This document shows positions 2,085-61,715 of a stretch of DNA of 61,986 nt, piece by piece; the stretch's first letter is position 1, and each line of letters starts with the position of its first letter. This stretch comes from Actinomycetota bacterium (GTDB taxonomy: Bacteria > Desulfobacterota > Deferrimicrobia > Deferrimicrobiales > Deferrimicrobiaceae). The notes below the pieces were generated by a model, which searched no databases, was not told the DNA's origin, and saw only the letters and a program-made list of their open reading frames with translations. The stretch lies in assembly GCA_050258195.1 (NCBI GenBank), contig JBLMYI010000015.1, positions 1 through 61,986 of the forward strand, written 5' to 3'. Both the position numbers and the translations under genes were made by a program.

Positions 2085-3098
2085 CTACCGCTTCTTGAAC
2101 GGTACCCGGGGCTTCGGGGTGGATTTCTTCTTCCCGGGGTGTTTCGCTCCCCGTTTCCAGGCAGGCTTGGGTTGGCGCGGGCCCTTGCGCTCGGCGGATC
2201 CGGCCGCGTCCGCCTCCTTCTCCTTCTCGATCTCCTTTTTACGCGCCGCCTCGTAGATCGACTGCCGGATCACTTTCCGCTTTCCGCGGTCGGCGGGGGT
2301 CTCGAACCGCTTGGGGGGGCGCGGCACGTCGGCCGGGGGTTTCTGCCCGGCGACTTCCACCTCCCGGCGTTCCATGTAGGCGTTCATCTCCCGCACTTCC
2401 TTCGACGTCAGGTAGCGCCACTCCCCCGGCTCGACGCCGGAAAGCTCCAGCGGCCCGATCGCGACGCGCCGCAGCTTGGTCACCCGGTGGCCGATGGCGT
2501 CGAACATCTTGCGAACCTGGTGGTACCGGCCTTCCGCGATCCGCATCAATACCCACGCCTTGCCGCCCTTCTTCTCGATGAAGTTGATCTGGGCGGGTGT
2601 CGTCATCTTCCCCTCGATCGCGACGCCGCGCCGCAGAACGTTCAGCTCCGCCGGGCGGGGAACGGTCTGCAGCTTCGCGATATACGTCTTCTCAACGCCG
2701 AATCGCGGGTGCGTGAGCCGGTAGGCGAACTCGCCGTCGTTCGTGAGCAGGAGCAGCCCGGTGGTGTGGAAGTCGAGACGGCCGACGGGGAAGACGCGGG
2801 AGGAGAGCTCGCCGATCAGCGAGGGGGCGGTCTTGCGGCCCTCGCGATCCTTCATCGTGGTCACCACGTTGTCGGGCTTGTACAGCATGACGTAGATCTT
2901 CTCTTCCTGGACGGGGACGAGCGTGCGGCCGTCGAGGCGCACCTCCTGGGTGGAGGGGTCCCAAAACGTGCCGGGGTCCAGGACCGGGACGCCGCTGACG
3001 GTGACCCGGCCGTTGCGGACCATCTCGTCGGCTACGCGGCGCGAGACGCCGGCGGCCAGCGAGAGGTACCGGTTCAGGTGCTGAGTGTTCCTATTCAT
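2085..3098 (-). CDS. rluB: 23S rRNA pseudouridine synthase RluB family, with basic K/R-rich C-terminal tail
   Basis: C-terminal 337 codons of ORF 2085..3740. S4 domain (LNRYLSLAAGVSRR) and catalytic PVGRLDFHTTGLLLLTNDGE motif. Start is ATG 3098 (MNRNTQHLNRY). The upstream part of the ORF is Arg/Gly/Pro off-frame-like. Confidence 0.85.
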   Translation of the reverse strand: MNRNTQHLNRYLSLAAGVSRRVADEMVRNGRVTVSGVPVLDPGTFWDPSTQEVRLDGRTLVPVQEEKIYVMLYKPDNVVTTMKDREGRKTAPSLIGELSSRVFPVGRLDFHTTGLLLLTNDGEFAYRLTHPRFGVEKTYIAKLQTVPRPAELNVLRRGVAIEGKMTTPAQINFIEKKGGKAWVLMRIAEGRYHQVRKMFDAIGHRVTKLRRVAIGPLELSGVEPGEWRYLTSKEVREMNAYMERREVEVAGQKPPADVPRPPKRFETPADRGKRKVIRQSIYEAARKKEIEKEKEADAAGSAERKGPRQPKPAWKRGAKHPGKKKSTPKPRVPFKKR

Positions 3099-3316
3099 AA
3101 ATAGGGCGAAGCACCGAGAGCGTCGATGCGCCGCGCCGGCAAGGCGCGCGACTGAGACGTACTGAGAAAGTACGGCGCAAGGAGCGCCCCACTCCCGGAC
3201 GAAATCCTCTCCCCGGGGTACCCCAGACGGCCGATACCATGTACCTTGCTCGGCACGAGGGGCACAACGCAGCCGGAGCGGATGCAGCGGCGGTCGGATG
3301 CCGCCATATTTATGAA
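3094..3316. repeat. divergent copy of the repeat core with an internal L-type module, closed by AT-rich inverted arms 3094..3105 / 3304..3316
   Basis: Manual alignment to 41121..41262. Shared blocks are GCACCGAGAG.GTCGATGCGCCGC, the CGTAC..GTACG hairpin and the GCGGATGCAGCGG box (3278..3290). It also contains a GCGCCCC...GGGGTACCCC module (3185..3225). Confidence 0.6.
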
Positions 3317-3325
3317 TTGGGACAC

Positions 3326-4276
3326 TTAGTCCCCATTTCCGGGTTCGCTCCCCTCCCCCGCCGCCTTCGAGGCGGCGTCCGACAGCGCGGCCTCGGTCAC
3401 GTCGGGGGGGAGCTCCCCTTCCTTCGCGGAAGGGCCTTCCGCCGCCGGCCCGGCTTCCGCGAGGCTCGCGGCGAGCTCGTCCCCGCCCTGATCGATTGCG
3501 CCGTCGGGGATCGCCGGCAGGTGCATCGTCGGACGGCCTTCCTCGACCGGCGTGCCGGTGGAGGCGGCGAGGAAATCCTCGATATCCCGCATCGACGGCA
3601 GCTCGGAGAGGGAACCGAGGCTGAACGTCTCCATGAACTCCCGGGTGGTGCCGAAGAGGAACGGCTTGCCGGGGACGTCCTTCTTCCCCATCACCCTCAC
3701 GAGCCGCCGGTCCATCAGCGTCTTCAACGACCCGGCGCAATCCACGCCGCGGATCTGTTCGATCTCCTGCCGGGTCAGCGGCTGCTTGTAGGCGATGATC
3801 GCCAGCGTCTCCAGCGCGGCGCGGGAGAAGCGCGGCGGCTTCACGTCGAAGAGGCGGCGCACGTGCTCCTGGTTCGCCGGGCTGGTGCGGAACTGGAACC
3901 CCTTCGCCACTTCCTCCACGAGGATCCCCGAGGAGTCGACGGGATATTTCGCGCGGAGGAAGGCGAGCACCTCCCGCACCTGGGCGCGGTTGAGGCCGCC
4001 CAGCAGCTGGCGTGCCTTGTCGAGGGGGATCGGCTCGGTGGAAACGAGGAGGAGGCTCTCCAGGATCGAGGCGGCGCGCGGAAGATCGGCGTCGGGAATC
4101 GGAGGCTCCGCCTCCGCTTCGGAGGTCGAGCGCAGCAGTTCGTCGACACTGATCGGCTCCCCGGACGCCAGCGGCGCTTCCGGAGTGTCCCCGGACGCCG
4201 GCGGCGCCTCCGGCGTGTCCCCGGATGCCGGCGGCTCACTCTGCATCGGCGGATTCGGTTTCGGCGTCTCTTCCAT
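3326..4276 (-). CDS. scpB: segregation and condensation protein B, with long low-complexity N- and C-terminal extensions
   Basis: ORF 3326..4276. ILESLLLVSTEPIPLDK...ETLAIIAYKQPLTRQEIEQIRGVD...LMDRRLV is the ScpB double winged-helix pattern. Confidence 0.85.
   Translation of the reverse strand: MEETPKPNPPMQSEPPASGDTPEAPPASGDTPEAPLASGEPISVDELLRSTSEAEAEPPIPDADLPRAASILESLLLVSTEPIPLDKARQLLGGLNRAQVREVLAFLRAKYPVDSSGILVEEVAKGFQFRTSPANQEHVRRLFDVKPPRFSRAALETLAIIAYKQPLTRQEIEQIRGVDCAGSLKTLMDRRLVRVMGKKDVPGKPFLFGTTREFMETFSLGSLSELPSMRDIEDFLAASTGTPVEEGRPTMHLPAIPDGAIDQGGDELAASLAEAGPAAEGPSAKEGELPPDVTEAALSDAASKAAGEGSEPGNGD
4158..4237. repeat. in-frame 30-nt tandem repeat (about 2.7 units) inside the scpB 5' region
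   Basis: TCCCCGGA(C/T)GCC(A/G)GCGGCG..TCCGG.GTG is repeated. It encodes PPASGDTPEA PPASGDTPEA PLASGEP on the minus strand. Confidence 0.8.
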
Positions 4277-5049: not shown

Positions 5050-6030
5050 TCAGATCCGGACAGCTTCGCGGACCTCCGCCATCTTGGCGCCCGCCACTTC
5101 CCGCGCGCGGCGCGTGCCGTCCGCCAGGATGTCGCGAACGGAGACGCCGCTTTCCACGATCCGCCGGCGCTCTTCGCGGATCGGGGCGAGGACCTTTTCC
5201 ATCCCCTCGAACATCCACTTCTTGCACTCGATGCAGCCGATCCCCGCGGTCCGGCAGCCCGTGTCGACCTTCGCGATCGTCGCCTCGTCGGAAAAGATCT
5301 TGTGGTAGGAGAAGACGTTGCAGATCTCGGGGTTCCCCGGGTCGGTGCGCCGCTGTCTCGCCGGGTCGGTGACCATCGGCTTCACCTTGGCCCAGACCTC
5401 TTCCGACGTGTCGGAGAGGAGGATCGCGTTCCCGTAGCTCTTGCTCATCTTCCGGTTGTCCATCCCCATCAGCTTCGGCGTCTCGGTCAGGTACGCCTCG
5501 GGTATGGTGAGGCACTCCTTGTAGAGGAAGTTGAAGCGGCGGGCGATCTCGCGGGTCAGCTCCAGATGCGGAACCTGGTCGACGCCGACGGGGACCAGCG
5601 AGGCGTCGTACATCAGGATGTCCCCCGCCATGAGGACCGGGTAGCCCAGGAACCCGTACGTCTGCAGGTCACGGGTGGTCTGCTCCCGCAGCTGCTCCTT
5701 GTAGATCGGGTTGCGCTCCAGCCACGACAACGGCGTGATCATCGAGAGGAGGAGATGCAGCTCGGCGTGCTCGGGGACGTGGCTCTGGATGAACAGCGTC
5801 GCCTTCGAGGGGTCGATCCCCGAGGCCATCCAGTCGATGACCATGTCGTCGATGCTCTCGCGGATGACGGCGGAGCGATCGTACTCCGTGGTCAGCGCAT
5901 GCCAATCGGCGACGAAGAAGAAACAATCATTCTTCTCCTGGAGCGTCTTCCAGTTGACCAGGACCCCGAGGTAGTGCCCCAGGTGCAGTTGACCGCTCGG
6001 CCGCATGCCGCTCAAGACCCGTTTGCGCAA
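5050..6030 (-). CDS. trpS: tryptophan--tRNA ligase
   Basis: ORF 5050..6030. GQLHLGHY (HIGH-type) and KMSKS motifs, class I TrpRS pattern. TTG start follows GGAGG. Confidence 0.93.
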   Translation of the reverse strand: MRKRVLSGMRPSGQLHLGHYLGVLVNWKTLQEKNDCFFFVADWHALTTEYDRSAVIRESIDDMVIDWMASGIDPSKATLFIQSHVPEHAELHLLLSMITPLSWLERNPIYKEQLREQTTRDLQTYGFLGYPVLMAGDILMYDASLVPVGVDQVPHLELTREIARRFNFLYKECLTIPEAYLTETPKLMGMDNRKMSKSYGNAILLSDTSEEVWAKVKPMVTDPARQRRTDPGNPEICNVFSYHKIFSDEATIAKVDTGCRTAGIGCIECKKWMFEGMEKVLAPIREERRRIVESGVSVRDILADGTRRAREVAGAKMAEVREAVRI

Positions 6031-6789: not shown

Positions 6790-6958
6790 CCACCAAACCC
6801 CGAAACCCAAACCCCAGAACCGGGACGTTCCTAGAACTCCAACAAAAGAGGGACAGAGATGGAAAGTGGGTACATTTTGTAGAAACCATGTCTGTCCCGG
6901 ATCTGGGGGAGTTCTAGGAACGTCCCGGTTCAGGGGTTTTCGTTTTCGGGGTGGGGGG
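6790..6958. repeat. nested imperfect palindrome: outer arms 6812..6840 / 6908..6936 (28 of 29 matches) and inner arms 6850..6862 / 6886..6898 (12 of 13 matches)
   Basis: Read directly. CCCCAGAACCGGGACGTTCCTAGAACTCC pairs with GGAGTTCTAGGAACGTCCCGGTTCAGGGG, and GGGACAGAGATGG pairs with CCATGTCTGTCCC. The right arm covers the stop codon and last codons of the 6914..9580 gene. Confidence 0.85.
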
Positions 6959-17532: not shown

Positions 17533-17578
17533 GTGGAAGCTAGCCGGCCTTCCATCGACGAATCCTCGACGCAGCTTT

Positions 17579-17657
17579 TGGTACGGCGAGGGAGCGAAAC
17601 GAAGACGGGGCGGATGCAGCGGCGCCCGAACGCGGCCGCTATCATGAAATGGAGCAC
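17579..17657. repeat. partial (3'-half) relative of the repeat core in the HIT-mutS spacer
   Basis: Manual alignment to 41178..41262 gives roughly three quarters identity by eye. It contains the GCGGATGCAGCGG box at 17610..17622 and the ending AAATGGAGC. Confidence 0.5.
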
Positions 17658-18157
17658 TACGGAGTCAAGGGTCCGAAGACCGCCGACAGGCGGCGACGGG
17701 ATTCCAGCAGCGACTCGGGCAGCACGCGGGTTTCCTGGACCGGCGTCATGAAATTGGTGTCGCCCGCCCAGCGGGGAACGAGGTGGACGTGGAGGTGGTC
17801 GGCGATCCCGGCGCCGGCGGCCTTCCCCAGGTTCATCCCGATGTTCATCCCTTCCGTTCTATATTCCTGTTCAAGTACCCGTGTGCCCAGGGAAACCAGA
17901 GAGAAAAGTTCGCGGAGCTCTTCGCCCGGCAGGTCCCACAGGTTCGCCACGTGTCGACGGGGGGCGACCAGCACGTGCCCGTTGTTGTAAGGGTAGCGGT
18001 TCAGGATCGCCGCGGTGTTCGGGTACAGTCCGACAAGGAGACGTTCGGGGTCTTCGAGGTCTCCGTCCCCGACACAGAAAACGCACTGCGCCGTCCCCCC
18101 GCCCCCGCCCGCCCGGCGGATGTATTCCATCCGCCAGGGGGAGAAGATCCGGTCCAT
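17657..18157 (-). CDS. HIT family nucleotide hydrolase/transferase (Ap4A phosphorylase-like)
   Basis: ORF 17657..18157. Histidine triad HLHVHLVPRW and the CVFC motif near the N-terminus. Confidence 0.85.
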   Translation of the reverse strand: MDRIFSPWRMEYIRRAGGGGGTAQCVFCVGDGDLEDPERLLVGLYPNTAAILNRYPYNNGHVLVAPRRHVANLWDLPGEELRELFSLVSLGTRVLEQEYRTEGMNIGMNLGKAAGAGIADHLHVHLVPRWAGDTNFMTPVQETRVLPESLLESRRRLSAVFGPLTP

Positions 18158-32186: not shown

Positions 32187-32274
32187 GTTGCCCCCTCTCC
32201 TCAATCAACGAACCTACAGATCGCGCCTTATTTATACGGCAACCTAAAACCAGATACTTTGACTCCGGGCTCGT

Positions 32275-32530
32275 TCCCCGTATTTCCGACTGCGGGGGTA
32301 CCCCAGCAGCGCGTAGCTCGTACTGGGGCGCCCTCTCCTTCTATAGATACTCAGACTCCGGCTGCGCCGCCTCGGAGGGCGGGGCTCCGTTTGAGGCTCG
32401 CCGTGCGGAGAACCTGCACGGCAGCCCACCAGCCTCACTGTGCCCCCCGTTCTTCCTACGGCGGGGGTACCCCGGCAGCGCGAACCTCGTACCGGGGCGC
32501 CCCCCTCCTGCGGCGACTCCGCCGGGCCCT
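32275..32530. repeat. composite repeat: a solitary L-module (32275..32335) followed by a short-form R+L element (32355..32530) without the core
   Basis: Reverse-complement alignment to 42800..43005 and 40971..41345. GGGGTACCCC...GGGGCGCCC hairpin modules, CCGTGC..GCACGG hairpin, CCTCACTGTGCCCCCCGTTCTTCCTACGGCGGGGG. Confidence 0.8.
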
Positions 32531-32591
32531 CCTGTCTCGTGCGCCTTCAGTGCTGTCTTCCCGGTACGTTTCAAAATTCATGAATGCCGTT

Positions 32592-33713
32592 CTACGCCTT
32601 GACGGGTTCCTTTTCGCCGAGTACCCGGAACTTCGGCTCCATCGCCTTCATCCGTTCCACGATCCCCCCGTATTCGAGCTCACTGTACGGGAGCATCGCG
32701 GGGCCGAAGAACCCCTGCCGGCGAAGATCCTCGGACTTGGCGGACACCCGCCCCCGGACGTACTCCCAGTACGGGTGGTCGAATGCGTCGGCCGGCTCGG
32801 TGAACCGCCCATCCTTTACGCAGAAGGCGAGGGCCGAGACGATCGGAGGCCCGTCGAAGAAGGAGATCCCCGTGTTCATCGGCACCGGCATGAGCGCCCC
32901 ATGGTGGCTTCCCCGCATGAAGCCGGCGACCAGGTGGCCGATGGTGTAGGGGGCGAGCACCTCCCCCGTGGCGGGAAAGTTCCCCTGCGTCCGCACCAGC
33001 ATCACCGGGTCGTCCTTCCCGGTGTACTTCCCTGCGATGTTGTGGAGCCGGGTGGTGCTGACCACGGCCGCGATCTCGCCGGTGGCGCGGGAGCGGATGG
33101 ACTCGACGACGAACCGCTCCTGGTCTCGCAGCAGCGCCGCGATGTCGTAGAGATCCTCGGGCGCCGAAAGGTCGATCACCTTGTCCCCTTCCGTGTTCGC
33201 GACGTCCATGATGCGGAAGGTGAACCCCTTCCCCACCTTCGGCGAGAGGATGAGGCCGGAGGAGAACATCGGGTCGGCGAAGCCGAGGTAGGACGGCAGG
33301 TTGTACGCGCCCGGGTCGGTCTTGTCCGCCGCGAAGAGGACGAACGGCTCGTTGGGGCGCTCCTCGAACTCCATCTCCGCCACCGCGGGCCCCATCCCCT
33401 TCACGTTGCCCGAGAACGAGTCCTTCAGGAGGTCCTGCCCCGCGCCGTAGAGCCCTTCGGATTTCGCCACCGCGGTTCCCGCGATGAAGGCGTCCCACGC
33501 CAGCTTGTGGACCTTCCCGTTTCCCGTCCCCCCGGTATGGGACATCAGGATCGCCACGTCGTCCCCGGTAAAACCGACGTAGGCGTCGATCAGCAGCCCT
33601 TTCCCGAGCTCGGCGACCTTCGACCGCACCATTTCGAGCAGCTTCGCGCTCGGACGGATGTGCCCCCCGATGGAACCGATGTCCGCCTTGATGACCGACA
33701 GCGTGACCTTCAT
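32592..33713 (-). CDS. fbp: class V fructose-1,6-bisphosphate aldolase/phosphatase (bifunctional, archaeal-type)
   Basis: ORF 32592..33713. The hallmark N-terminus MKVTLSVIKADIGSIGGH and a length of about 373 aa match the FBP aldolase/phosphatase family. Confidence 0.88.
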   Translation of the reverse strand: MKVTLSVIKADIGSIGGHIRPSAKLLEMVRSKVAELGKGLLIDAYVGFTGDDVAILMSHTGGTGNGKVHKLAWDAFIAGTAVAKSEGLYGAGQDLLKDSFSGNVKGMGPAVAEMEFEERPNEPFVLFAADKTDPGAYNLPSYLGFADPMFSSGLILSPKVGKGFTFRIMDVANTEGDKVIDLSAPEDLYDIAALLRDQERFVVESIRSRATGEIAAVVSTTRLHNIAGKYTGKDDPVMLVRTQGNFPATGEVLAPYTIGHLVAGFMRGSHHGALMPVPMNTGISFFDGPPIVSALAFCVKDGRFTEPADAFDHPYWEYVRGRVSAKSEDLRRQGFFGPAMLPYSELEYGGIVERMKAMEPKFRVLGEKEPVKA

Positions 33714-34794: not shown

Positions 34795-34869
34795 GGCGGC
34801 ATAGCCAAGTGGTAAGGCAGAGGACTGCAAATCCTTTATCCCCCGGTTCGAATCCGGGTGCCGCCTCCA
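34795..34869 (+). tRNA. tRNA-Cys (anticodon GCA), CCA encoded
   Basis: Manual cloverleaf: acceptor GGCGGCA/TGCCGCC, anticodon loop CTGCAAA, T-arm CCCGG-TTCGAAT-CCGGG. Confidence 0.9.
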
Positions 34870-34919
34870 TTCCTCCCTCGTACCGGGATCCCCCGTTTTC
34901 TGGTATCTTCCCTGTGAGC

Positions 34920-35006
34920 GCCCGGGTGGCGGAACTGGCAGACGCACGGGACTTAAAATCCCGAGGCCGCGAGGCCGTGCGGGTTCGATTCCCCCCCCGG
35001 GCACCA
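34920..35006 (+). tRNA. tRNA-Leu (anticodon TAA), long variable arm, CCA encoded
   Basis: Manual cloverleaf: acceptor GCCCGGG/CCCGGGC, anticodon loop CTTAAAA, variable arm GGCCGCGAGGCC, T-loop TTCGATT. There is one T-stem mismatch by my folding. Confidence 0.85.
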
Positions 35007-39626: not shown

Positions 39627-40962
39627 TCGCTTCCGCCTCGGCGCGGGCGACGTCCACGCGCAGGAGGAGGGCGAGCCCCGCGACGAAGAAGACCGCCAGC
39701 GAGAGGATCGCGACGCGGTAGCTTCCCGTGAACTGCAGCGCCAGCCCGAAAAAGAGGGGCCCCAGCCAGCTCGTCCCCCGCTCGCTCACCTCGTACAGGG
39801 AGAAGTACTCCGCCTCCCTCCCGACCGGGATCATCCGCGAGAACAGGGACCGGGAGAGGGCCTGGCTCCCGCCGAGGACGACGGCCACGCACGCCGCCAT
39901 CGCGTAGAACCCGGTCGCGTCCCGTAGCCCGGCGTAGGCGTAGACGAGCGTCCCCGTCCACAAAACGAGGCTGATCGCCACCGCCGTCTTTGCCCCCACC
40001 CGCTTCGCGAACGCGTTGAAGAGCAGGGCCCCGAAAAAGGCGACGAACTGGACCATGAGGATCGCCGTGGTCAGCGTCGAAACGGAGAGGCCCAGCTCCT
40101 CCTGGCCGAACTGGGACGAGAGGGCGATCACCGTCTGTATGCCGTCGTTATACAGCAGGTAGGCGCCAAGGAACAGCAGGAGCTGCCGGTGGCCCTTCGC
40201 CTCGGCGAACGTGCGCCGCAACTGTCGAAATCCGATGCCGAGGATCCCCTCCCCCGGGGGAAGCGGCCGCGCGGCCTCCCTGCGCCGCATCGTGGCGAGC
40301 GGCAGGAGGGAGAAGACGGCCCACCACGCCCCCGCCGATGCGAGGCTGATCCGGACCGCCTCGCCGCCCGTCAGCCCGAAGTCGCGCGCATGGGAGAAGA
40401 GGACCAGGTTCAGGAGGAGGAGGATCCCGCCCCCTAGGTACCCGAGCGCCCACCCCACGGAAGAAACGGCATCGCGGTCCTCCGAAGGCGCGATGTCGGG
40501 AAGCCAGGCGTTGTAGAAGACCACCGAGGCCCCGAAGCAGACGTTGGCCAGAAGGAAGAGCCCCCCGCCCAGCAGGTACCGCGTCCCTTCGAGAAAATAG
40601 AGCCCCACCGTCGCCGCCGATCCCGCGTAGGCGAAGAGGAACAGCATCGATTTCTTCCGGTGGGAGTAGTCGGCGAGCGCGCCGAGAAGCGGCAGGAGGA
40701 GGACCTGGAAGAAGACGGAGAGGGAAACGACGTACGGGAAGAACGACCCCGCGAGCACGGGGACGCCGAGAGGGTGCACGTACCCCGCGGGGTCGGCGGC
40801 GGCGCGGGCTACGGAGGTCAGGTACGGTCCCGTGAACACCGTGACCACCGTCGTGGAGAAGGCCGAGTTCGCGAAATCGTAAAAATACCAGCCGACCCGC
40901 TCGGGCCGGCCTTCCCTGGCTAGAGCGGCCATCTCCCCTCCCGGAGCCCCATTCTGCCACAA
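39601..40962 (-). CDS. MFS transporter, UMF1/Atg22-like family
   Basis: ORF 39601..40962. WYFYDFANSAFSTTV motif and about 12 hydrophobic segments. An alternative start is ATG 40932. The 3' end overlaps livF convergently by 26 nt. Confidence 0.75.
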   Translation of the reverse strand: MWQNGAPGGEMAALAREGRPERVGWYFYDFANSAFSTTVVTVFTGPYLTSVARAAADPAGYVHPLGVPVLAGSFFPYVVSLSVFFQVLLLPLLGALADYSHRKKSMLFLFAYAGSAATVGLYFLEGTRYLLGGGLFLLANVCFGASVVFYNAWLPDIAPSEDRDAVSSVGWALGYLGGGILLLLNLVLFSHARDFGLTGGEAVRISLASAGAWWAVFSLLPLATMRRREAARPLPPGEGILGIGFRQLRRTFAEAKGHRQLLLFLGAYLLYNDGIQTVIALSSQFGQEELGLSVSTLTTAILMVQFVAFFGALLFNAFAKRVGAKTAVAISLVLWTGTLVYAYAGLRDATGFYAMAACVAVVLGGSQALSRSLFSRMIPVGREAEYFSLYEVSERGTSWLGPLFFGLALQFTGSYRVAILSLAVFFVAGLALLLRVDVARAEAEAITAPGTTP

Positions 40963-40970
40963 TCACCACG

Positions 40971-41345
40971 GAAGGCGCACTTAACGTGAGGGTCCGGCGG
41001 AGTCGACGGAGGAGGCGGGGCGCCCCGGTACGAGCTTCGCGCTGCCGGGGTACCCCCGCAGCAGGAAAAACAGGGGGCACAGTGAGGCCGGCCTCCAGGG
41101 TTCCGTTCCCGAAGAGGCCGTGCACCGAGAGGGTCGATGCGCCGCCTCCGGCGAGGCGCCCGACCGAGGCGTACCCACGGCGGTACGGTGAGGGAGGGGA
41201 ACGATGCCGGGGCGGATGCAGCGGGCCTCGAATGCCGGGATCTGAGGGAATGGAGCCCTGGAGGCCGGTGCGCAGCCGTGCAGGTTCACCGCACGGCGAG
41301 CCACGAACGGAGCCCCGCCCTCCGAGGCGACGAAGCCGAATGGAG
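40971..41345. repeat. long-form mosaic repeat: L-module (40971..41087), TIR-bounded core (41088..41268) and R-module (41269..41345)
   Basis: Manual alignment to 61355..61715 (reverse complement), 42800..43005 and 32275..32530. See findings. Confidence 0.85.
41088..41268. repeat. 181-nt repeat core bounded by perfect 13-bp inverted termini CCGGCCTCCAGGG / CCCTGGAGGCCGG (MITE-like element or structured RNA)
   Basis: Read directly. A twin at 61432..61612 in opposite orientation differs by 7 substitutions and no indels in my hand alignment. Confidence 0.8.
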
Positions 41346-41414
41346 TGTCCCGGAGGCGTCGCGCCTTCCGGGAGCGCAGTTTGGACGTTGTCGTATTTGA
41401 TAAAAGGAGACCGC

Positions 41415-41834
41415 TTGGAGCATGTCGCCACCGTACGGGTGATCTTCGGCGATACGGACGCCGCCGGTATCGTCTATTACGGGAATTATCTTCGCTGGTT
41501 CGAGGTCGGCCGGGCGGAGTTGATGCGGCGGAGGGGGTTTTCGTACCTCGACACGATGGAACGGGGAGTGCTCCTCCCCGTCATCGAAACGGGCGCCAGC
41601 TATCACGCTTCCGCCCGGTACGACGACGTGCTCCGGATCCACGCGGAGATCCGTGACGTCCGGGGGGTGCGCCTGACGTTCGGGTACCGTATCGAGCGCG
41701 ACGACGGGGCCCTCCTGGTGACAGGGCATACCGTGCACGCGTTCACGGGGCGGGACGGGAGGCCGGTGCGGCCTCCCGTCGAGTTCCGCGCGCTGTCACT
41801 TACGAACGACATTTCCCGGGAAAAGGGGGCCTGA
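41415..41834 (+). CDS. YbgC/4HBT-family acyl-CoA thioesterase
   Basis: Within ORF 40986..41834. TTG start at 41415 follows AAGGAG. RVIFGDTDAAGIVYYGNYLRWFE is a hot-dog fold motif. Confidence 0.82.
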   Translation: MEHVATVRVIFGDTDAAGIVYYGNYLRWFEVGRAELMRRRGFSYLDTMERGVLLPVIETGASYHASARYDDVLRIHAEIRDVRGVRLTFGYRIERDDGALLVTGHTVHAFTGRDGRPVRPPVEFRALSLTNDISREKGA

Positions 41835-41836
41835 CG

Positions 41837-42793
41837 ATGGAGCGGAACCTGGCATTGGAGGTGGTCCGTGTGACCGAGGCGGCGGCGCTCGCCGCGGCGC
41901 GCTTGATGGGCCGCGGGGACAACATCGCGGCGGACCAGGCGGCGGTCACCGCGATGCGGAAAGCGCTGAGCTACGTCCAGTTCAAGGGACGTGTCGTCAT
42001 CGGCGAAGGGGAGAGGGACGAGGCTCCCATGCTCTACATCGGGGAGGAGGTCGGCGCGGCGGACTCACCAAAGGTCGACATCGCCGTCGACCCGCTCGAA
42101 GGGACGAACATCGTTTCCGCCGGGGGGTACAACGCCATCGCCGTGATCGCCATCTCGGAGGAGGGCGGGTTTCTTCACGCCCCCGACACGTACATGCAGA
42201 AGCTCGCGGTGGGGCCGAAGGCGCGCGGCGTGATCGACATCACCGCGACCCCGACGGAGAACCTCCGAAGGATCGCGAAGGCGCAGAAGGCGTACGTAGA
42301 GGACCTCTGCGTCGTGATCCTCGACCGGCCCAGGCACGAGGAGTTGATCCGGGAGGTCCGGGAAGCCGGCGCGCGGATCAAGCTCATCGGGGACGGGGAC
42401 GTGGCGGGTGCGATCGCTACGGCGAAAGAGGAGTCCGGGGTCGACGTCCTGATGGGGACGGGAGGGGCGCCGGAAGGGGTCCTGGCCGCCGCGGCGTTGA
42501 AATGCATGGGTGGAGACTTCCAGGGGATCCTGAAGTTCCGGAACAAGGAGGAGATCGAGCGCGCGAAGGGGATGGGGGTCACCGACCTGAACCGCGTCTA
42601 CGCCCTCGACGACCTGGCGAGGAGCGATGTGATGTTCGCCGCCACCGGCGTCACATTCGGCGATTTCCTGAAGGGAGTCCGCTTCTTCAGCGGCGGCGCG
42701 TACACCCAGTCCGTCGTCATGCGCTCCCGCTCCCGCACCACGCGAATCATCGACACGACCCACTACTTCGAGTTCAAGCCGAAGTACGAATAA
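41837..42793 (+). CDS. glpX: class II fructose-1,6-bisphosphatase
   Basis: ORF 41837..42793. LEVVRVTEAAALAAARLMGRGD, GEGERDEAPMLYIGE and DPLEGT motifs. Confidence 0.92.
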   Translation: MERNLALEVVRVTEAAALAAARLMGRGDNIAADQAAVTAMRKALSYVQFKGRVVIGEGERDEAPMLYIGEEVGAADSPKVDIAVDPLEGTNIVSAGGYNAIAVIAISEEGGFLHAPDTYMQKLAVGPKARGVIDITATPTENLRRIAKAQKAYVEDLCVVILDRPRHEELIREVREAGARIKLIGDGDVAGAIATAKEESGVDVLMGTGGAPEGVLAAAALKCMGGDFQGILKFRNKEEIERAKGMGVTDLNRVYALDDLARSDVMFAATGVTFGDFLKGVRFFSGGAYTQSVVMRSRSRTTRIIDTTHYFEFKPKYE

Positions 42794-42799
42794 AAACGG

Positions 42800-43005
42800 A
42801 GTGGGAAGGCAGCACGGAGGGGGTACGCAACAGGAGGCTCCGGCGGAGTAGCCGCAGGAGGGGGGCGCCCCGGTACGAGCTTCGCGCTGCCGGGGTACCC
42901 CCGCCGTAGGAAGAACGGGGGGCACAGTGAGGTAAAGCGCAGCCGTGCAGGTTCACCGCACGGCGAGCCACGAACGGAGCCGCCTCTCCGAGGCGGCGTA
43001 GCCGA
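42800..43005. repeat. short-form mosaic repeat (L+R modules, no core) in the glpX-oorD spacer
   Basis: Aligns with 40971..41087 plus 41269..41345. The junction CACAGTGAGG-taaa-GCGCAGCCGTGCAGG marks the empty core site. Confidence 0.8.
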
Positions 43006-43016
43006 AGGGGGAACGG

Positions 43017-43229
43017 ATTACGGCGACGGGGCGGATCGAGATCGATTTCGAGCGGTGCAAGGCGTGCGAACTGTGCGTTCCCGTCTGCCCGAAGGGGTGC
43101 ATCGGGATGGGAACGTCCGTCAACCGGCAGGGGTACGCGTCCGCCGTATTCGAGCGCCCCGACGTCTGCACGGGGTGCGCGATCTGCGCCGAGACTTGCC
43201 CCGACGCGTGCATCCTGGTGTGGCGATGA
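43017..43229 (+). CDS. 2x[4Fe-4S] ferredoxin-like delta subunit of 2-oxoacid:ferredoxin oxidoreductase (start codon uncertain, possibly ATT)
   Basis: Not in the ORF track. Frame is open from 43002 to TGA 43227..43229. It encodes [20 protein letters not shown]...[12 protein letters not shown], two CxxCxxCxxxCP motifs. The first motif precedes the only in-frame ATG. The stop overlaps the next gene (ATGA). Confidence 0.7.
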
Positions 43230-50397: not shown

Positions 50398-51540
50398 ATG
50401 GTGTTCGAACTGACCGAAGAGCAGCGGATGATCCAGGAGACCGCGAGAGAGTTCGCCCGGAAGGAGGTCCTTCCGAAGGCGGCCGAGCTGGACGAGAACA
50501 GCCGCTTCCCCGAGGAGCTGATCCGGGAGATGGCCGGACTCGGCTTCATGGGGATCGCCGTCCCCGAGGAATACGGGGGCGCCGGGATGGACAACGTCTG
50601 CTATGCGATCGCCATGGAGGAGATCTCCCGGGCATGCGCCTCCACCGGCGTCATCATGTCCGTCAACAATTCCCTGGCGTGCGACCCGATCCTCAAGTTC
50701 GGATCCGAGGAGATCAAGCGGGAATACCTCGTCCCGATGGCCTCCGGGAAGAAGCTCGGCTGCTTCGGCCTCACGGAGCCCGGCGCAGGCTCCGACGCCG
50801 GCTCCCAGAAGACCACCGCGGTCCGGGACGGGGATTTCTACGTCGTCAACGGAACCAAGAACTTCATCACGAACGCGCCTCAGGCGGACACCTGCGTCCT
50901 CTTCACGATGACCGACAAGGCGAAGACGCACAAGGGGATCACCGCGTTCGTCGTCGACATGAAATGGAAGGGAGTCTCGCTCGGGAAGCACGAGAAGAAG
51001 ATGGGGATCCGGGCGTCGGCCACCTCCTCGATCATTTTCGAGGACGTCCGCGTCCCTGCCAGGAACCGGCTGGGGAACGAGGGGGACGGGTTCAAGGTCG
51101 CCATGAACACACTCGACGGGGGACGGATCGGGATCGCCTCCCAGGCGATCGGGATCGCCCGCGCCGCCTTCGAGGACGCACTCTCCTACTCGAAGGACCG
51201 GAAGCAGTTCGGCCAGGCGATCTGCGAATTCCAGGCGATCCAGTGGATGCTCGCGGATATCGCCACCGAAATCGACGCGGCGCGCCTGCTCACCTGGAGG
51301 GCCGCCTGGATGAAGGACCGCAAGATGCGCCACTCCAAGGAGTCCTCGATGGCGAAGCTGTACGCCTCGGAGGTCGCGATGCGCGCCGCGGTGAAGGGCG
51401 TCCAGATCCACGGCGGGTACGGGTACATCAATGAGTACCCCGCGGAGCGGCACTTCCGCGACGCGAAGATCACGGAGATCTACGAGGGGACCTCCGAGAT
51501 CCAGCGGCTGGTCATCTCGGCCGCGCTTCTGAAGGGATAG
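50398..51540 (+). CDS. acyl-CoA dehydrogenase (short-chain/butyryl-CoA dehydrogenase-like), paralog 1
   Basis: ORF 50398..51540. GLTEPGAGSDAG, DGGRIGIA and YEGTSEIQRLVI motifs. Confidence 0.9.
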   Translation: MVFELTEEQRMIQETAREFARKEVLPKAAELDENSRFPEELIREMAGLGFMGIAVPEEYGGAGMDNVCYAIAMEEISRACASTGVIMSVNNSLACDPILKFGSEEIKREYLVPMASGKKLGCFGLTEPGAGSDAGSQKTTAVRDGDFYVVNGTKNFITNAPQADTCVLFTMTDKAKTHKGITAFVVDMKWKGVSLGKHEKKMGIRASATSSIIFEDVRVPARNRLGNEGDGFKVAMNTLDGGRIGIASQAIGIARAAFEDALSYSKDRKQFGQAICEFQAIQWMLADIATEIDAARLLTWRAAWMKDRKMRHSKESSMAKLYASEVAMRAAVKGVQIHGGYGYINEYPAERHFRDAKITEIYEGTSEIQRLVISAALLKG

Positions 51541-51546
51541 GACGGG

Positions 51547-52677
51547 ATGGATTTCCGCCTCACCGACGAGCAGCTGCAGGTCGAGGAGATGGTGCGCGGC
51601 CTCTCCGGGAAAGAGTTCGCCCCGCGCGCCGCACAGATCGACGAGGAAAGCCGCTACCCCGCGGAGAACCACAGAATCCTGGCGGACCTGGGGCTGCTCG
51701 GAATGCTGTATCCTGCATCGTTCGGGGGATCGGAGGCGGGCCCCGTCTCCTACGCCATCGCCCTCAGGGAAGTCGCGGGAGCATGCGCCTCGACGGGGGT
51801 CGGCATGGCGGTCACCAACATGACGGGCGAGGCGATCTTCCGGTTCGGGAACGATGCGCAGCGCAGGCGCTACCTCCCGATGCTCTCGGGCGGGAAAGGC
51901 GCGGGCGCGTTCGCCCTCACCGAGCCCGGCGCCGGCTCCGACGCCGGGGGGCTTTCGACGTTCGCCCGGGAAGACGGCGACGGGTACGTCCTTGAAGGCT
52001 CAAAAGCCTTCATCACGAACGGCGCCCACGCCTGCGTCACGATCGTCATGGCGCTGACGCGGAAGTCGCCGCGGGAAATCAGCGCTTTCCTGGTGGATCC
52101 GGGGATTCCGGGGTTCTCCGTCGGGAAGAGCGAGCATAAGTTGGGCATCAGGGGGTCCGACACCGTCTCCCTGTCCTTCGAGGAGTGCCGGGTTCCGAAA
52201 TCGGCGATGCTGGGGCCGCCCGGGGAAGGGTTGAAGATCGCGCTCTCGGCGCTCGACGGAGGGCGGATCGCCATCGGATCGCAGGCGATCGGGATCGCGC
52301 GGTCGGCGCTTTCCACGGCGACGGAGTACGCGAAGGACCGGCGCCAGTTCGGGCAGGCGATCGGCGAATTCCAGGCGATCCAATGGAAGCTCGCGGACGC
52401 CGCGACCGAGCTCGACGCCGCCCAGATGCTCGTGTTCCGGGCAGCGTCGCTGAAGGAAAAGGGACTACGATACTCGAAGGAGGCCTCGATGGCCAAGCTC
52501 TTCGCCACGGAGGCGGGGAACAGGGCCTGCCACGCCGCGGTGCAGGTGCTGGGAGGGTACGGCTACATCCGGGAATATCCGGTCGAGCGCCACCTGCGCG
52601 ACATCCGGGTGACCACGATCTACGAGGGGACCTCCGAGATCCAGCGGATCGTGATCTCGCGGGCCCTCCTAGGGTAG
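51547..52677 (+). CDS. acyl-CoA dehydrogenase, paralog 2
   Basis: ORF 51547..52677. ALTEPGAGSDAG, DGGRIAIG and YEGTSEIQRIVI motifs. Confidence 0.9.
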   Translation: MDFRLTDEQLQVEEMVRGLSGKEFAPRAAQIDEESRYPAENHRILADLGLLGMLYPASFGGSEAGPVSYAIALREVAGACASTGVGMAVTNMTGEAIFRFGNDAQRRRYLPMLSGGKGAGAFALTEPGAGSDAGGLSTFAREDGDGYVLEGSKAFITNGAHACVTIVMALTRKSPREISAFLVDPGIPGFSVGKSEHKLGIRGSDTVSLSFEECRVPKSAMLGPPGEGLKIALSALDGGRIAIGSQAIGIARSALSTATEYAKDRRQFGQAIGEFQAIQWKLADAATELDAAQMLVFRAASLKEKGLRYSKEASMAKLFATEAGNRACHAAVQVLGGYGYIREYPVERHLRDIRVTTIYEGTSEIQRIVISRALLG

Positions 52678-53225: not shown

Positions 53226-53347
53226 GGGGCACCCCAGCACGAGCTTCGCGCTGCCGGGGTACCCCCACTGCAGGAAAAACGGGGGGCACCCCAGTACGAG
53301 CTTCGCGTTGCTGGGGTACCCCCACTGTAGGAAAAACGGGGGGCACC
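53226..53347. repeat. tandem 57-nt L-module hairpin units (2 full units plus an 8-nt start of a third) filling the cobO-mutase spacer
   Basis: GGGGCACCCCAG.ACGAGCTTCGCG.TGC.GGGGTACCCCCACTG.AGGAAAAACGG occurs at 53226..53282 and 53283..53339, then GGGGCACC and ATG 53348. Confidence 0.85.
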
Positions 53348-55030
<1,683 letters not shown>

Positions 55031-56853: not shown

Positions 56854-57402
56854 ATGACGAAGAAGAATCCGACGAAGCGGCCCGCGGCCTCTTCGAAGTT
56901 CGAGGAACTGATGACCGGGACGACGGTGTTCAACGTGCCGTTGCCGTCGGACCTGAAGGCGCTGAAAGGGATGTCCCCGATCGTCATCCGGCAGCCGTAC
57001 AGCATCGACTACATCCACTCCTACGGGCAGGATTCCCCCTTCTTCGCGGGACTCTCCAACAAGAAGCTTCTCGGTACGAAATGCCCGAAGTGCGACTACA
57101 CCTGGGCCACGCCCCGGCTGGCGTGCACGCAATGCGGGCGGGAGACCAAATGGGTGGAACTCCCCCTGACGGGAAGGGTGCACACCTTCACCACCTGCTA
57201 TTTCGGCGGCGAGGAGTTCCTGAAGGAAACCCCCTTCCACCTCGTGCTGGTGGAGTTCGACGGGGTCGACACGCTTTTCCTGTCCCGTCTACTCGGACCG
57301 GAGCAGCCGGAGGACATCCGGATCGGAATGAAGGTGAAGGCGAAGTTCCGCCGCAATTCCCAGCTGAAGCCGACCGATGTCTATTTCGTGCCCGCCGAGT
57401 AG
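56854..57402 (+). CDS. DUF35 family OB-fold/zinc-ribbon protein (thiolase partner)
   Basis: Within ORF 56536..57402. Start is ATG 56854. CPKCDYTWATPRLACTQCG is a rubredoxin-like ribbon, followed by an OB-fold region. Confidence 0.8.
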   Translation: MTKKNPTKRPAASSKFEELMTGTTVFNVPLPSDLKALKGMSPIVIRQPYSIDYIHSYGQDSPFFAGLSNKKLLGTKCPKCDYTWATPRLACTQCGRETKWVELPLTGRVHTFTTCYFGGEEFLKETPFHLVLVEFDGVDTLFLSRLLGPEQPEDIRIGMKVKAKFRRNSQLKPTDVYFVPAE

Positions 57403-57406
57403 GGGT

Positions 57407-58552
57407 ATGGAGTTCGTCCTGAACGACGAGCAGCAGGCGCTGCGGGACATGCTGCGAACGTTTGTGGCGAAGGAGGTGCGGCCGAAGGCGGGGGAGTGGG
57501 ACGCGTCGGCGGAGTTCCCCCGGGAAACGGTCGCGAAACTCGGTGAGCTCGGACTCCTCGGAGCGATGGTCCCCGAGGAGTACGGGGGATCCGGGATGGA
57601 CACGGTGAGCTACGCCGTCGCCGTCGAGGAGATCTCCAAGGGGGACGGCTCTCTCGGCCTGACGGTGGCGTCCCACAACTCCCTGTGCACCGCGCACATC
57701 CTGGGCTTCGGGTCGGAGGCGGTGAAGAGGAAATACCTTCCCGACCTGGCGTCCGGAAAGTCCCTCGGGGCCTGGGGCCTGACGGAGCCCGGTTCCGGTT
57801 CGGACTCCCTCGGGATGCGGACGAAGGCGGAATGGAAGAAGGACCGTTGGGTGATCAACGGGAGCAAGATGTTCATCACCCAGGGAAACGTCGCCGGGGT
57901 ATACGTGGTCCTCGCCGTCACGGACAGGGACAAAGGGAAGGACGGCGTCACCGCCTTCGTCTTCCCGTCCGGCACGAAGGGTCTCTCGATCGGGAAAAAG
58001 CTCCACAAGCTCGGGATGCGCTCCTCGGACACGGCCGAACTGGTCTTCGAGGATCTCGAGGTGGGGCCCGACGCCGTGGTGGGACAGGTCAATTCCGGAT
58101 TCCGCGACACGATGAAAAACCTCGCCGGGGGGCGGATCTCGATCGCCGCCCTCTCGGTGGGGATCGGCCTCGGCGCGATGCGGGAGGCGCTGGCCTATTC
58201 CAGGGAGAGGACGCAGTTCGGGAAGGCGGTGTCGGAGTTCCAGGCGATCCAGTGGATGTTCGCGGATATGGGGACCGAGCTCGAGGCCGCGGAGTTGATG
58301 ACCTTCCGGGCGGCGTGGCTCAGGGACGCCCGGCGTCCCTACACCCGGGAAGCCGCGATGGCCAAGCTGTACGCCTCCGAGGCCGCGATGCGGGCGACGA
58401 TCAAGGCGGTCCAGGTGTTCGGCGGGTACGGATACACGCAGGAGTATCCCGCGGAGCGGTACATGCGGGACGCCAAGCTGTGCGAGATCGGGGAAGGGAC
58501 CTCCGAGGTGCAGCGGATCATCATCGCGCGCGACCTGATCCGGAGCCACTGA
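57407..58552 (+). CDS. acyl-CoA dehydrogenase, paralog 3
   Basis: ORF 57377..58552. Start is ATG 57407 (MEFVLNDEQQALRDM). GLTEPGSGSDS, GGRISIAA and GEGTSEVQRIII motifs. Confidence 0.9.
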   Translation: MEFVLNDEQQALRDMLRTFVAKEVRPKAGEWDASAEFPRETVAKLGELGLLGAMVPEEYGGSGMDTVSYAVAVEEISKGDGSLGLTVASHNSLCTAHILGFGSEAVKRKYLPDLASGKSLGAWGLTEPGSGSDSLGMRTKAEWKKDRWVINGSKMFITQGNVAGVYVVLAVTDRDKGKDGVTAFVFPSGTKGLSIGKKLHKLGMRSSDTAELVFEDLEVGPDAVVGQVNSGFRDTMKNLAGGRISIAALSVGIGLGAMREALAYSRERTQFGKAVSEFQAIQWMFADMGTELEAAELMTFRAAWLRDARRPYTREAAMAKLYASEAAMRATIKAVQVFGGYGYTQEYPAERYMRDAKLCEIGEGTSEVQRIIIARDLIRSH

Positions 58553-61342: not shown

Positions 61343-61354
61343 CCCCCCGGGACT

Positions 61355-61715
61355 CCCCCTTCGGCTGCGTCTCCTCGGAGGGCGGGGCTCCGTTCGTGGC
61401 TCGCCGTGCGATGAACCTGCACGGCTGCGCTCCGGCCTCCAAGGCTCCATTCCCTCAGATCCCGGCATTCGAGGCCCGCTGCATCCGCCCCGGCGTCGTT
61501 CCCCTCCCTCACCGTACCGCAGTGGGTACGCCTCGGTTGGGCGCCTCGCCGGATGCGGCTCATCGACCCTCTCGGTGCACGGCCTCTGCGGGAACGGAAC
61601 CCTGGAGGCCGGCCTCACTGTGCCCCCCGTTCTTCCTACGGCGGGGGTACCCCAGGGAGTGTAGTTAGTCCGGGAGTGGGGCGCCCCCCCTCCTCCGGCG
61701 ACTCCGCCGGAATTC
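61355..61715. repeat. long-form mosaic repeat in inverted orientation: R-module, core 61432..61612, and L-module with a variant hairpin loop
   Basis: Its reverse complement aligns with 40971..41345. TIRs are CCGGCCTCCAAGG (61432..61444) and CCCTGGAGGCCGG (61600..61612). Confidence 0.85.

Follow-up and report, generated by a model that had tools for sequence, protein, structure and literature searches.

What kind of repetitive DNA fills the spacers between the genes of an uncultured bacterial lineage, and how does it spread? This question is raised by a stretch of 61,986 nt from contig JBLMYI010000015.1 (assembly GCA_050258195.1, Deferrimicrobiaceae), in the following called the window, which contains GC-rich sequence modules recurring from spacer to spacer. 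An earlier note on this DNA had compared these modules with mosaic elements of the REP/BIME type (repetitive extragenic palindromes and bacterial interspersed mosaic elements) or with nested MITEs (transposable elements of miniature size with inverted repeats). We conclude, with a probability of about three in four, that the repeats are lineage-specific non-autonomous transposons (MITEs) which derive from an insertion sequence (IS) of the IS630 family. The family is undescribed in the uncultured Deferrimicrobium lineage, and its kind, MITE, is already known.

Recurrence and anatomy of the modules

The modules had been assigned to five main sites, with more divergent relatives at 3094..3316 and 17579..17657. 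Reading of the motifs located all seven sites in the window, at or slightly beyond these positions. A BLAST comparison of the window with itself aligned 40993-41356 with 61711-61344 (90.2% identity over 369 nt, E 4e-144) and 32356-32571 with 43007-42794 (87% over 216 nt, E 6e-71). The 57-nt hairpin units show a mutual identity of 84-94%, and the two divergent relatives, elements F and G in the list below, align with 3111-3162 and 17580-17658 to the core or middle part of 40964-41356 (E 1e-11). A repeat finder that works independently of BLAST recovered the same families (D3, D5, D11, I1-I14). In total the repeats amount to ~1.87 kb, or 3% of the window (66% GC), and they occupy 7 of the ~11 spacers of 120 nt or more that are truly non-coding, in agreement with the view that the family fills most long spacers. 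The gene calls in the window rest on a heuristic using the GC content at third codon positions (GC3), and several genes were checked against Pfam.

To search outside the window we scanned a single representative assembly of each GTDB species with the pattern GGGGTACCCCN7GGAANAACNGGGGGCAC. This gave at least 116 matching stretches from at least 18 assemblies, so that the modules are neither absent elsewhere nor an artefact of this assembly. Nearly all matches listed belong to assemblies named Candidatus Deferrimicrobium, Deferrimicrobiaceae or 'Deltaproteobacteria bacterium'. Module counts given below cover the window and 116 related 8-kb loci from at least 18 genomes, together 799 kb, and include orthologous copies. 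Gene calls in the related loci rest on GC3. The search pattern is the tail of the H module described below, and conservation of this tail is therefore biased upward. The sole match, among those listed, in a bin labelled Thermoleophilia (L040, JBBAAB010000195.1) shares its sample of origin with the positive bin SO_2017_GW3_32, so that the contig was probably mis-binned and does not represent a second host lineage.

The family had not been recognized before, and comparisons with Rfam, with plasmid, phage and viral collections and with the literature likewise gave no match. The H pattern was not found in viral contigs, nor the consensus element in plasmids. Rfam 15 at the gathering score reported only two tRNAs in the whole window and no family for the repeats, and a search of region 40900-43100 at E<=5 gave only noise and nothing relevant. 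To our knowledge, all information on Deferrimicrobium and related bacteria (candidate phylum MBNT15) comes from metagenomes. A literature search for Deferrimicrobium repeats and for the sequence motifs yielded no description, the motifs matching only cloning primers; the genome paper on Candidatus Deferrimicrobium borealis lists five mobile-element genes and mentions no repeats (PMC9386147).

Coverage of element B, the site of the original observation, by matches from the window and the 116 loci revealed four sharp-edged blocks: P (~45 nt), H (57-66 nt), K (~187 nt, the 'core' of the earlier note) and R (~67-89 nt). Iterated nhmmer searches gave 87 matches for P, 210 for H, 32 for K and 85 for R, which combine to 169 arrays with the nearly always colinear order P-H(n)-(K)-R. 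The commonest architectures are H (31 arrays), PHR (23), HH (14), PH (10), HR, PR and K (7 each) and PHKR (5). An inverted H pair is present in only ~8 of the 169 arrays. The occurrence in both orientations described before thus applies to whole arrays, which lie on either strand, but not to the modules within an array. Similarly, the L-module of ~110 nt proposed earlier is real as a sequence but not a single module, and corresponds to P (~45 nt) plus H (57-66 nt).

The H unit contains the palindrome CCCCRG...CYGGGG and an invariant GTAG ~5 nt 3' of the hairpin (4 nt after GGGGTACCCC). Two variants with unlike interiors and a common tail exist, H1 (...CCCCRGTACGAGCTTCGCGCTGCYGGGGTACCCC) and H2 (...CCCCACTCCCGGACGAAATGCGCTCCCTGGGGTACCCC). 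P repeats the 3' part of R imperfectly and in inverted orientation. The second hairpin ascribed to the R-module, GCCGCCTC-tcc-GAGGCGGC, exists in the copy at 42794-43012 but is limited to it and not typical of the family; most copies have CGGAG-loop-CTCCG.

Terminal inverted repeats and the IS630-type partner

Alignment of the PHR arrays together with their flanks showed AATACGGYAACG at the left side and its complement at the right side. Using TTCATAAATACGGCAACG with up to 4 mismatches we found 82 ends, and a profile of the 81 ends with enough flank demonstrated a sharp onset of conservation at the C of CTNAG, which lies 13 nt farther outward. The terminus has a length of ~35 bp, CTNAGTGCTNCNNTTCATAAATACGGYAACGTATC. 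The backbone of the repeats is a MITE family: full elements have 165-490 bp and no coding capacity, and consist of terminal repeats, a short subterminal region and a GC-rich, hairpin-rich cargo of the P...R or the K type. Such full elements (terminal repeat-P-(H)-R-terminal repeat with conserved junctions) were present in several genomes and metagenomes. The sites described for the window are real, but the bounds given to them were too short, as the elements end in terminal inverted repeats that had gone unnoticed. All window copies are located between called genes. Both termini are intact in element F and degenerate or partial in A, B, C, E and G. The elements and their parts are:

3081..3329, plus strand: element F, K-type MITE of 249 bp, complete and with a terminal inverted repeat at either end (CTGAGTGTTCCTATTCATAAATAGGG ... 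CCATATTTATGAATTGGGACACTTAG)
3181-3229: H-like hairpin, insert of element F
3326-3328: right-hand TTA of element F, which is the TAA stop codon of scpB (minus strand) and the right-hand TNA
17576..17659, plus strand: element G, right half of a K-type element that ends in a remnant of the right terminal repeat (TATCATGAAATGGAGCACTAC); the end overlaps the stop codon of a HIT-family gene (17657..18157, minus strand)
32214..32597, minus strand: element A, order P-H-R-H on the minus strand, between the genes for fructose-1,6-bisphosphatase and glucose-6-phosphate isomerase (both minus strand)
32505-32548, 32440-32497, 32358-32424 and 32276-32328: P, H, R and second H of element A
32227-32244 and 32567-32584: degenerate terminal repeats of element A
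40964..41403, plus strand: element B, order P-H-K-R; left terminal repeat lost, thioesterase ATG at 41424 just outside
40970-41014, 41017-41082, 41083-41269 and 41270-41339: P, H, nested K and R of element B, followed by a subterminal region and a degenerate right terminal repeat (core 41386-41403)
42794..43012, plus strand: element C, order P-H-R
42818-42860, 42862-42932 and 42936-43005: P, H and R of element C
42786-42797: remnant of the left terminal repeat of element C (GAATAAAAACGG), overlapping the glpX stop codon
53225..53347, plus strand: element D, only two tandem 57-nt H units (53226-53282 and 53283-53347), which fill the entire spacer from the stop codon of the corrinoid adenosyltransferase gene to the ATG of the methylmalonyl-CoA mutase gene
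61344..61711, minus strand: element E, order P-H2-K-R on the minus strand, 90% identical to B; downstream of the CoA-transferase gene and against the direction of transcription
61361-61428, 61432-61617, 61620-61676 and 61690-61711: R, K, H (variant 2) and P of element E, with a degenerate terminal region beyond P to ~61750

In B and E, degenerate forms of the same termini flank the K block, which is related to element F; K is therefore a nested element. At one orthologous site it is present in locus L055 (PHKR) and absent in L083 (PHR).

A scan of metagenomes with the terminal-repeat core TTCATAAATACGGYAACG provided at least 120 loci (L118-L237) with a GC content of 37-70%. On these contigs, across the whole GC range, the same termini are found on many elements of 136-490 bp whose interiors are unrelated. 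P, H and R are almost confined to contigs with at least 60% GC (28/39 versus 3/81 of the metagenome loci listed). One interior family of 184 bp was seen at eight metagenome loci.

At locus L223 the same termini enclose a 1288-bp element (349-1636) with the genes orfA and orfB. The product of orfA is a helix-turn-helix protein of 100 aa that matches HTH_29, and the overlapping orfB encodes a protein of 335 aa which exceeds the cut-offs of NCBIfam NF033545 (IS630 family transposase; 108.4 bits, cut-off 100) and of Pfam DDE_3 (54 bits, cut-off 28.6). Loci L139, L149 and L190 carry orfB with 65-68% identity, ~40 nt inside the same terminus. With E<=1e-20 as threshold, the transposase family comprises 8000 or more protein clusters, the majority on contigs of ~1.3 kb, which indicates that assemblies break at the IS630-type element. 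This parent element is very abundant in environmental metagenomes. The ends of the IS, those of the window elements including F and other Deferrimicrobium ends align end to end with the pattern CTWAGTR...TTCATAAATACGGTAACGTAT.

In elements with CTNAG at both ends the central bases are identical in 21 cases, complementary in 3 and otherwise in 1 (one-sided binomial p ~1e-4 for identity), and TNA is therefore a direct duplication and not part of the inverted repeat. The duplicated TNA, mostly TAA or TTA, lies inside C/TNA/G. A CTNAG target with duplication of TNA is also a property of Tc4 and Tc5 of Caenorhabditis elegans, which belong to the IS630-Tc1-mariner superfamily. Members of the IS630 family are usually described as duplicating TA (PMC2229807); elements with the termini found here duplicate TNA. 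The same C/TNA/G target with the central TNA duplicated is described for the NuwaII group (PMC4482050). NuwaII and Tc4/Tc5 share the CTNAG target with our family but are eukaryotic elements, and NuwaII belongs to the PIF/Harbinger-ISL2EU superfamily, whereas the transposase identified here scores as bacterial IS630 family.

The target site is reflected in the position of the elements relative to genes. In the GTDB set, 22 of 73 termini (30%) coincide with the stop codon of an open reading frame (ORF) of at least 100 codons with high GC3 that reads into the element; at random positions such a coincidence occurs in 1.9%. The stop codon is located at TNA in 13 of the 22 termini, at TAG in 5 and at the TAA of CATAAAT in 4. 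CT-TAG contains TAG, and both TAA and TGA fit TNA, from which it follows that many insertions occurred exactly on stop codons and left the gene closed. In the window, the stop codons of scpB (element F), of glpX (terminal-repeat remnant of C) and of the HIT gene (G) are located at element ends.

Conservation and turnover of the cargo

In an alignment of 52 distinct R copies the stems of both hairpins are invariant and the loops variable. Using a 40-nt core of R and allowing up to 9 mismatches, we found 88 copies. The 7-bp stem showed 1/1232 mismatches, the loop 56/792 (7%), and the linker with the next stem 8/1320. All 88 cores have at most 4 mismatches, and no copy with 5-9 was obtained. A loop variant of the second R hairpin that is specific to the glpX site is common to four orthologues, although their flanking genes have an identity of only 77-84% at third codon positions. 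As a conversion tract covering both halves of a stem would homogenize the loop as well, the contrast between stems and loops argues for selection on the stems. Invariant R stems together with a recognizable terminal repeat in only ~1/4 of the copies point to selection on the cargo or to a spread without the termini.

Several patterns concern the strand on which the cargo folds. Two pairs of H1 are G.U in most copies when the P-to-R strand is considered (26/34 and 25/34), and would be C.A mismatches on the other strand. With a hand-specified structure, double changes in H1 occur at three pairs and fill 12 cells compared to 4.8 in shuffles, with 0/500 shuffles reaching 12, and under the same structure covariation in H is modest overall. 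A T/C position in P and an A/G position in R combine as U-A (24), U.G (25), C-G (8), G-C (1) and C.A (1); this is a standard pair in 58 of 59 elements, with a weak association (p ~0.04, copies not independent). Of the arrays between co-directional genes, 43 point in the direction of transcription and 21 in the opposite direction. RNAalifold detected no compensatory pairs in 52 R and 34 H copies because the stems do not vary. Folding energies, calculated for RNA and DNA, both strands, elements and units, were not better than those of shuffles (z -0.3 to -1.5). We therefore dropped thermodynamic stability as an argument, and the support for the hairpins comes from the conservation patterns. Taken together, the pairing and orientation patterns favor a structured P-to-R strand, in the simplest case as part of the transcript. 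A further-reaching proposal, which we put forward only tentatively, is that the P/H/R cargo is no decaying filler of a transposon but is kept by purifying selection across the family-level clade, folds on the P-to-R strand, most likely in the transcript, and is exapted, and that H in addition may be a self-targeting replicator. If this is true, the cargo could serve as a transcript-end or processing signal, as a ribosome-binding region or as a site bound by a lineage-specific protein. The invariant stems next to decaying terminal repeats offer a testable case for the domestication of MITE cargo.

The H unit occurs alone and in tandem and has a fixed short motif at the insertion point, a behavior similar to that of REP sequences. 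In the glpX spacer (window, L019, L038 and L060) the P...R backbone is common to all, and H is present or absent at two positions. Filled and empty H sites differ by 57-58 nt, from CCCC to GGGGGGCA, and the insertion point follows directly after GGGGGGCG or GGAAGGCGCA. The base pair before H is nearly always CR; GGCG precedes 76/156 units, and GGCG, GGCA, AGCG, CGCA or GACG form the 5' flank of 115/156. Since H ends in the same motif that it follows, tandem arrays arise naturally. At the D site, the spacer before the mutase gene, there is one H unit in L004, two in the window, and P, H2, a truncated R with a terminal-repeat remnant and H1 in L002. In the tentative proposal given above, H would be a self-targeting hairpin replicator without terminal repeats which spreads next to GCR motifs. 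Altogether 17 orthologous pairs with flanks mostly 85-97% identical differ in architecture (PHKR/PHR, HH/PHR, PRH/H), which indicates turnover on the time scale of species divergence. The polymorphism is seen at the level of modules (K, H, P-R), and all loci compared were ascertained by carrying the repeat.

Origin of the repeats and alternative explanations

Several observations weigh against an origin of the repeats from IS630-derived MITEs. After inspection of the flanks outside the terminal repeat, neither the window copies nor other Deferrimicrobium copies show a clean target duplication; the TNA duplication is seen only in younger metagenome relatives with the same termini, and the Deferrimicrobium copies are presumably too old for it to be visible. 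The sole complete autonomous copy is flanked by TAA at one side and TTA at the other, which also fits TA in CTAG, and all four autonomous copies belong to other organisms, their contigs having 41-52% GC. The earlier statement that the window has no transposase held for every window ORF tested, and no cognate transposase was found in the 116 related 8-kb loci. The nested K is flanked by the 6-bp direct repeat GCCGGT and not by TNA. Around 57 R cores a terminal repeat is recognizable at the left side in 13 and at the right side in ~16 (up to 8-10 mismatches in 28 informative positions), the rest being at random level. As three quarters of the R-bearing arrays are without a recognizable terminal repeat, P-H-R could be an independent repeat that was picked up by some MITEs. 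Gain and loss of H are explained by deletion between the flanking direct repeats GGGGGGCR equally well as by insertion. Finally, the counts include orthologous copies, which are not independent.

In a different view, P-H-R is primarily a functional module of structured RNA or single-stranded DNA used by the host, for example to protect transcript ends, to signal processing or to bind proteins as an array, and the MITE is only one vehicle. Invariant stems with variable loops in both R hairpins, a cargo that stays intact where the terminal repeats are at random level, the loop variants shared by four orthologues despite third positions of 77-84% identity, G.U pairs only on the P-to-R strand, the 2:1 orientation bias and an H tail abutting the mutase ATG in three species are all in line with such a function. 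We nevertheless regard it as rather unlikely as the primary nature of the repeats: Rfam gave no match even at E<=5, the folding energy is no better than that of shuffled sequences, and there are almost no compensatory changes, since almost nothing varies. Moreover, arrays are found in spacers of all types, including divergent ones (16/101), and in both orientations, and the module content differs at orthologous sites with 90-97% identical flanks, which would be odd for a site-specific function.

REP and BIME sequences of enterobacteria and pseudomonads are GC-rich imperfect palindromes with conserved stems that occur singly or clustered and in mosaics with other motifs. The repeats of the window resemble them in each of these features and likewise fill spacers. 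H, perhaps also P and R, could be palindromes copied by a REP-associated tyrosine transposase (RAYT) or another HUH enzyme, with the IS630-type ends as an unrelated neighbor. The arrays that consist of H alone (31) or of H in tandem (14, HH) have no terminal repeat in their vicinity; the position of H at the fixed motif GCR^, the motif in which it also ends, is reminiscent of HUH-type cleavage beside a hairpin. An invariant GTAG after the hairpin, stems that are invariant in sequence as expected for a hairpin recognized by a protein, and the lack of terminal repeats around most R cores fit as well. What makes this explanation improbable is the failure to find the enzyme and the architecture of the repeats. 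A phmmer search with RayT of E. coli K-12 at E<=10 gave no match in 6658 ORFs of the window and the 116 loci (~0.8 Mb, a small sample, and as a single-sequence search of limited reach), a search for the motif HUH...Y..NP in the same ORFs gave two false positives only, and ten ORFs flanked by inverted H units were all housekeeping genes according to Pfam, with no transposase among them. GTAG lies 3' of the hairpin, whereas the head of a REP would be a 5' GTAG or GTGG; the units are direct and not alternating, with inverted H pairs in ~8/169 arrays only; and complete P-(H)-R elements bounded by terminal inverted repeats of the DDE type exist in several genomes and metagenomes. The earlier alternative of BIME/REP-type elements or nested MITEs can thus be divided. 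Membership in REP/BIME is not supported, in view of the colinear modules, the 3' position of GTAG and the lack of a RAYT-like ORF in ~0.8 Mb; the nested MITEs agree with the terminal repeats, the TNA duplication in relatives, the IS630 partner and the nested K.

Chance similarity between GC-rich spacers or an assembly artefact has next to no probability. The high GC content of the window (66%) is all that could be cited in favor, against E values to 1e-144, modules in at least 18 assemblies and many metagenome samples, and copies at orthologous sites in several species. Two known types of array were also rejected. For an integron attC array, the neighbors are housekeeping genes, both orientations and divergent spacers occur, and no attC cores (RYYYAAC/GTTRRRY) were recognized on reading the modules; a CRISPR array was rejected on gene content, orientation and the absence of defining motifs.

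For the preferred origin from IS630-derived MITEs we propose the following course. An IS630-type DDE transposase supplied in trans would bind the terminal repeats, and insertion into C/TNA/G would duplicate TNA, as seen in the relatives and supposed for the window copies. With the stop codons TAA and TGA as target, insertions would leave the gene closed, and a transposon could in this way colonize a compact genome without breaking genes. A K-type element probably landed inside a P-H-R element, after which the composite spread (B and E in the window). H (57-58 nt) would be gained or lost directly 3' of a GCR motif and, ending in GGGGGGCA, would appear in tandem or solo, and deletions and exchange between copies would remodel the arrays at fixed sites. 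Most window copies would then be old, with decayed terminal repeats and duplications, and the invariant stems of the cargo would reflect selection on a single-stranded P-to-R structure, probably in the transcript.

Short non-coding intergenic elements with a comparable partner are known from Streptococcus pneumoniae: the terminal repeats of RUP match those of IS630-Spn1, which is thought to move RUP in trans (PMC2229807, PMC3049150). The present family is likewise short, non-coding and intergenic, and its termini match those of the IS630-family elements L223, L139, L149 and L190. In contrast to RUP, a simple AT-rich unit of 107 bp that inserts at TA, it is GC-rich, modular, nested and 165-490 bp long, its relatives duplicate TNA in C/TNA/G, and a cognate transposase was not found in the sample of the host lineage. 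The modular organization is similar to that of BOX (boxA-boxB(n)-boxC) of S. pneumoniae and S. suis, which varies in length between strains at fixed loci and has end modules that pair (PMC3049150). Correspondingly, P-H(n)-R contains 0-3 H units at orthologous sites, and P pairs with the 3' part of R. There is, however, no sequence relation to BOX, and the host belongs to another phylum; H occurs also alone, inside P, after R and in K-type elements, and the ends of BOX resemble ISSpn2, whereas the outer repeats are of the IS630 type here. Correia/NEMIS elements and other MITEs possess terminal inverted repeats and a short target duplication, lie near gene ends and may affect transcripts (PMC2229807). 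Our family shares the terminal inverted repeats, the insertion near or into gene ends and, in relatives with the same termini, the short target duplication, but differs from Correia in termini and parent family, and Correia elements are uniform (~107 or 155 bp) and not modular. The repeats account for part of the non-coding DNA, mark the lineage and can mislead callers of ORFs and small RNAs, and are therefore worth annotating. The duplication of TNA differs from the TA usually ascribed to the parent type of element.

All flanking genes of the repeats that were tested with Pfam are housekeeping genes. They encode a transporter of the major facilitator superfamily, a thioesterase, GlpX, subunits of a 2-oxoacid:ferredoxin oxidoreductase, the corrinoid adenosyltransferase, methylmalonyl-CoA mutase, MeaB, a CoA transferase, glucose-6-phosphate isomerase, fructose-bisphosphatase, ScpB and the HIT protein. 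Insertion can rewrite the ends and the ribosome-binding regions of such genes. In three species 4 nt separate the end of the last H unit from the ATG of the mutase gene (window 53330-53350; L002 ~4000-4010; L004 ~1790-1800), with the sequence ...GGAAAAACGGGGGGCACC ATG, and the H tail may be the ribosome-binding region of this gene. At L027 (~5221-5251) and L116 (~130-160) the outer terminal repeat is replaced by CAAGGAGGG, 6 nt and ATG, which suggests that old element ends were remodelled into Shine-Dalgarno sequences of the adjacent gene.

Some further features of the window were noted. For the ORF at 2139..3101 (plus strand) in stretch 2085-3104 no Pfam match was obtained; the real gene at 2085-3104 may be on the minus strand, downstream of scpB and starting just left of element F. 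The genes for tRNA-Cys(GCA) and tRNA-Leu(TAA) at 34795-35006, 50 nt apart, mark a long spacer that is among the few free of the repeat family. Three paralogous genes at 50398-52677 and 57377-58552, ~70% identical in DNA (repeat families D1-D3, D7 and D19), are clustered with the corrinoid adenosyltransferase, methylmalonyl-CoA mutase, MeaB and CoA transferase genes. Conserved motifs and context make it probable that they encode acyl-CoA dehydrogenases belonging to an acyl-CoA pathway. A different palindromic element is located at 6790-6958, with arms of 73 nt that are 79% complementary and 23 nt apart and with the core AGGAACGTCCCGGT at 6819-6832 (minus strand) and 6916-6929 (plus strand). The shorter core GGAACGTCCCGG forms an inverted pair in L087 (4462/4563) and is single in L078 and L083, and the element appears to represent a second repeat family of this lineage, with a low copy number.

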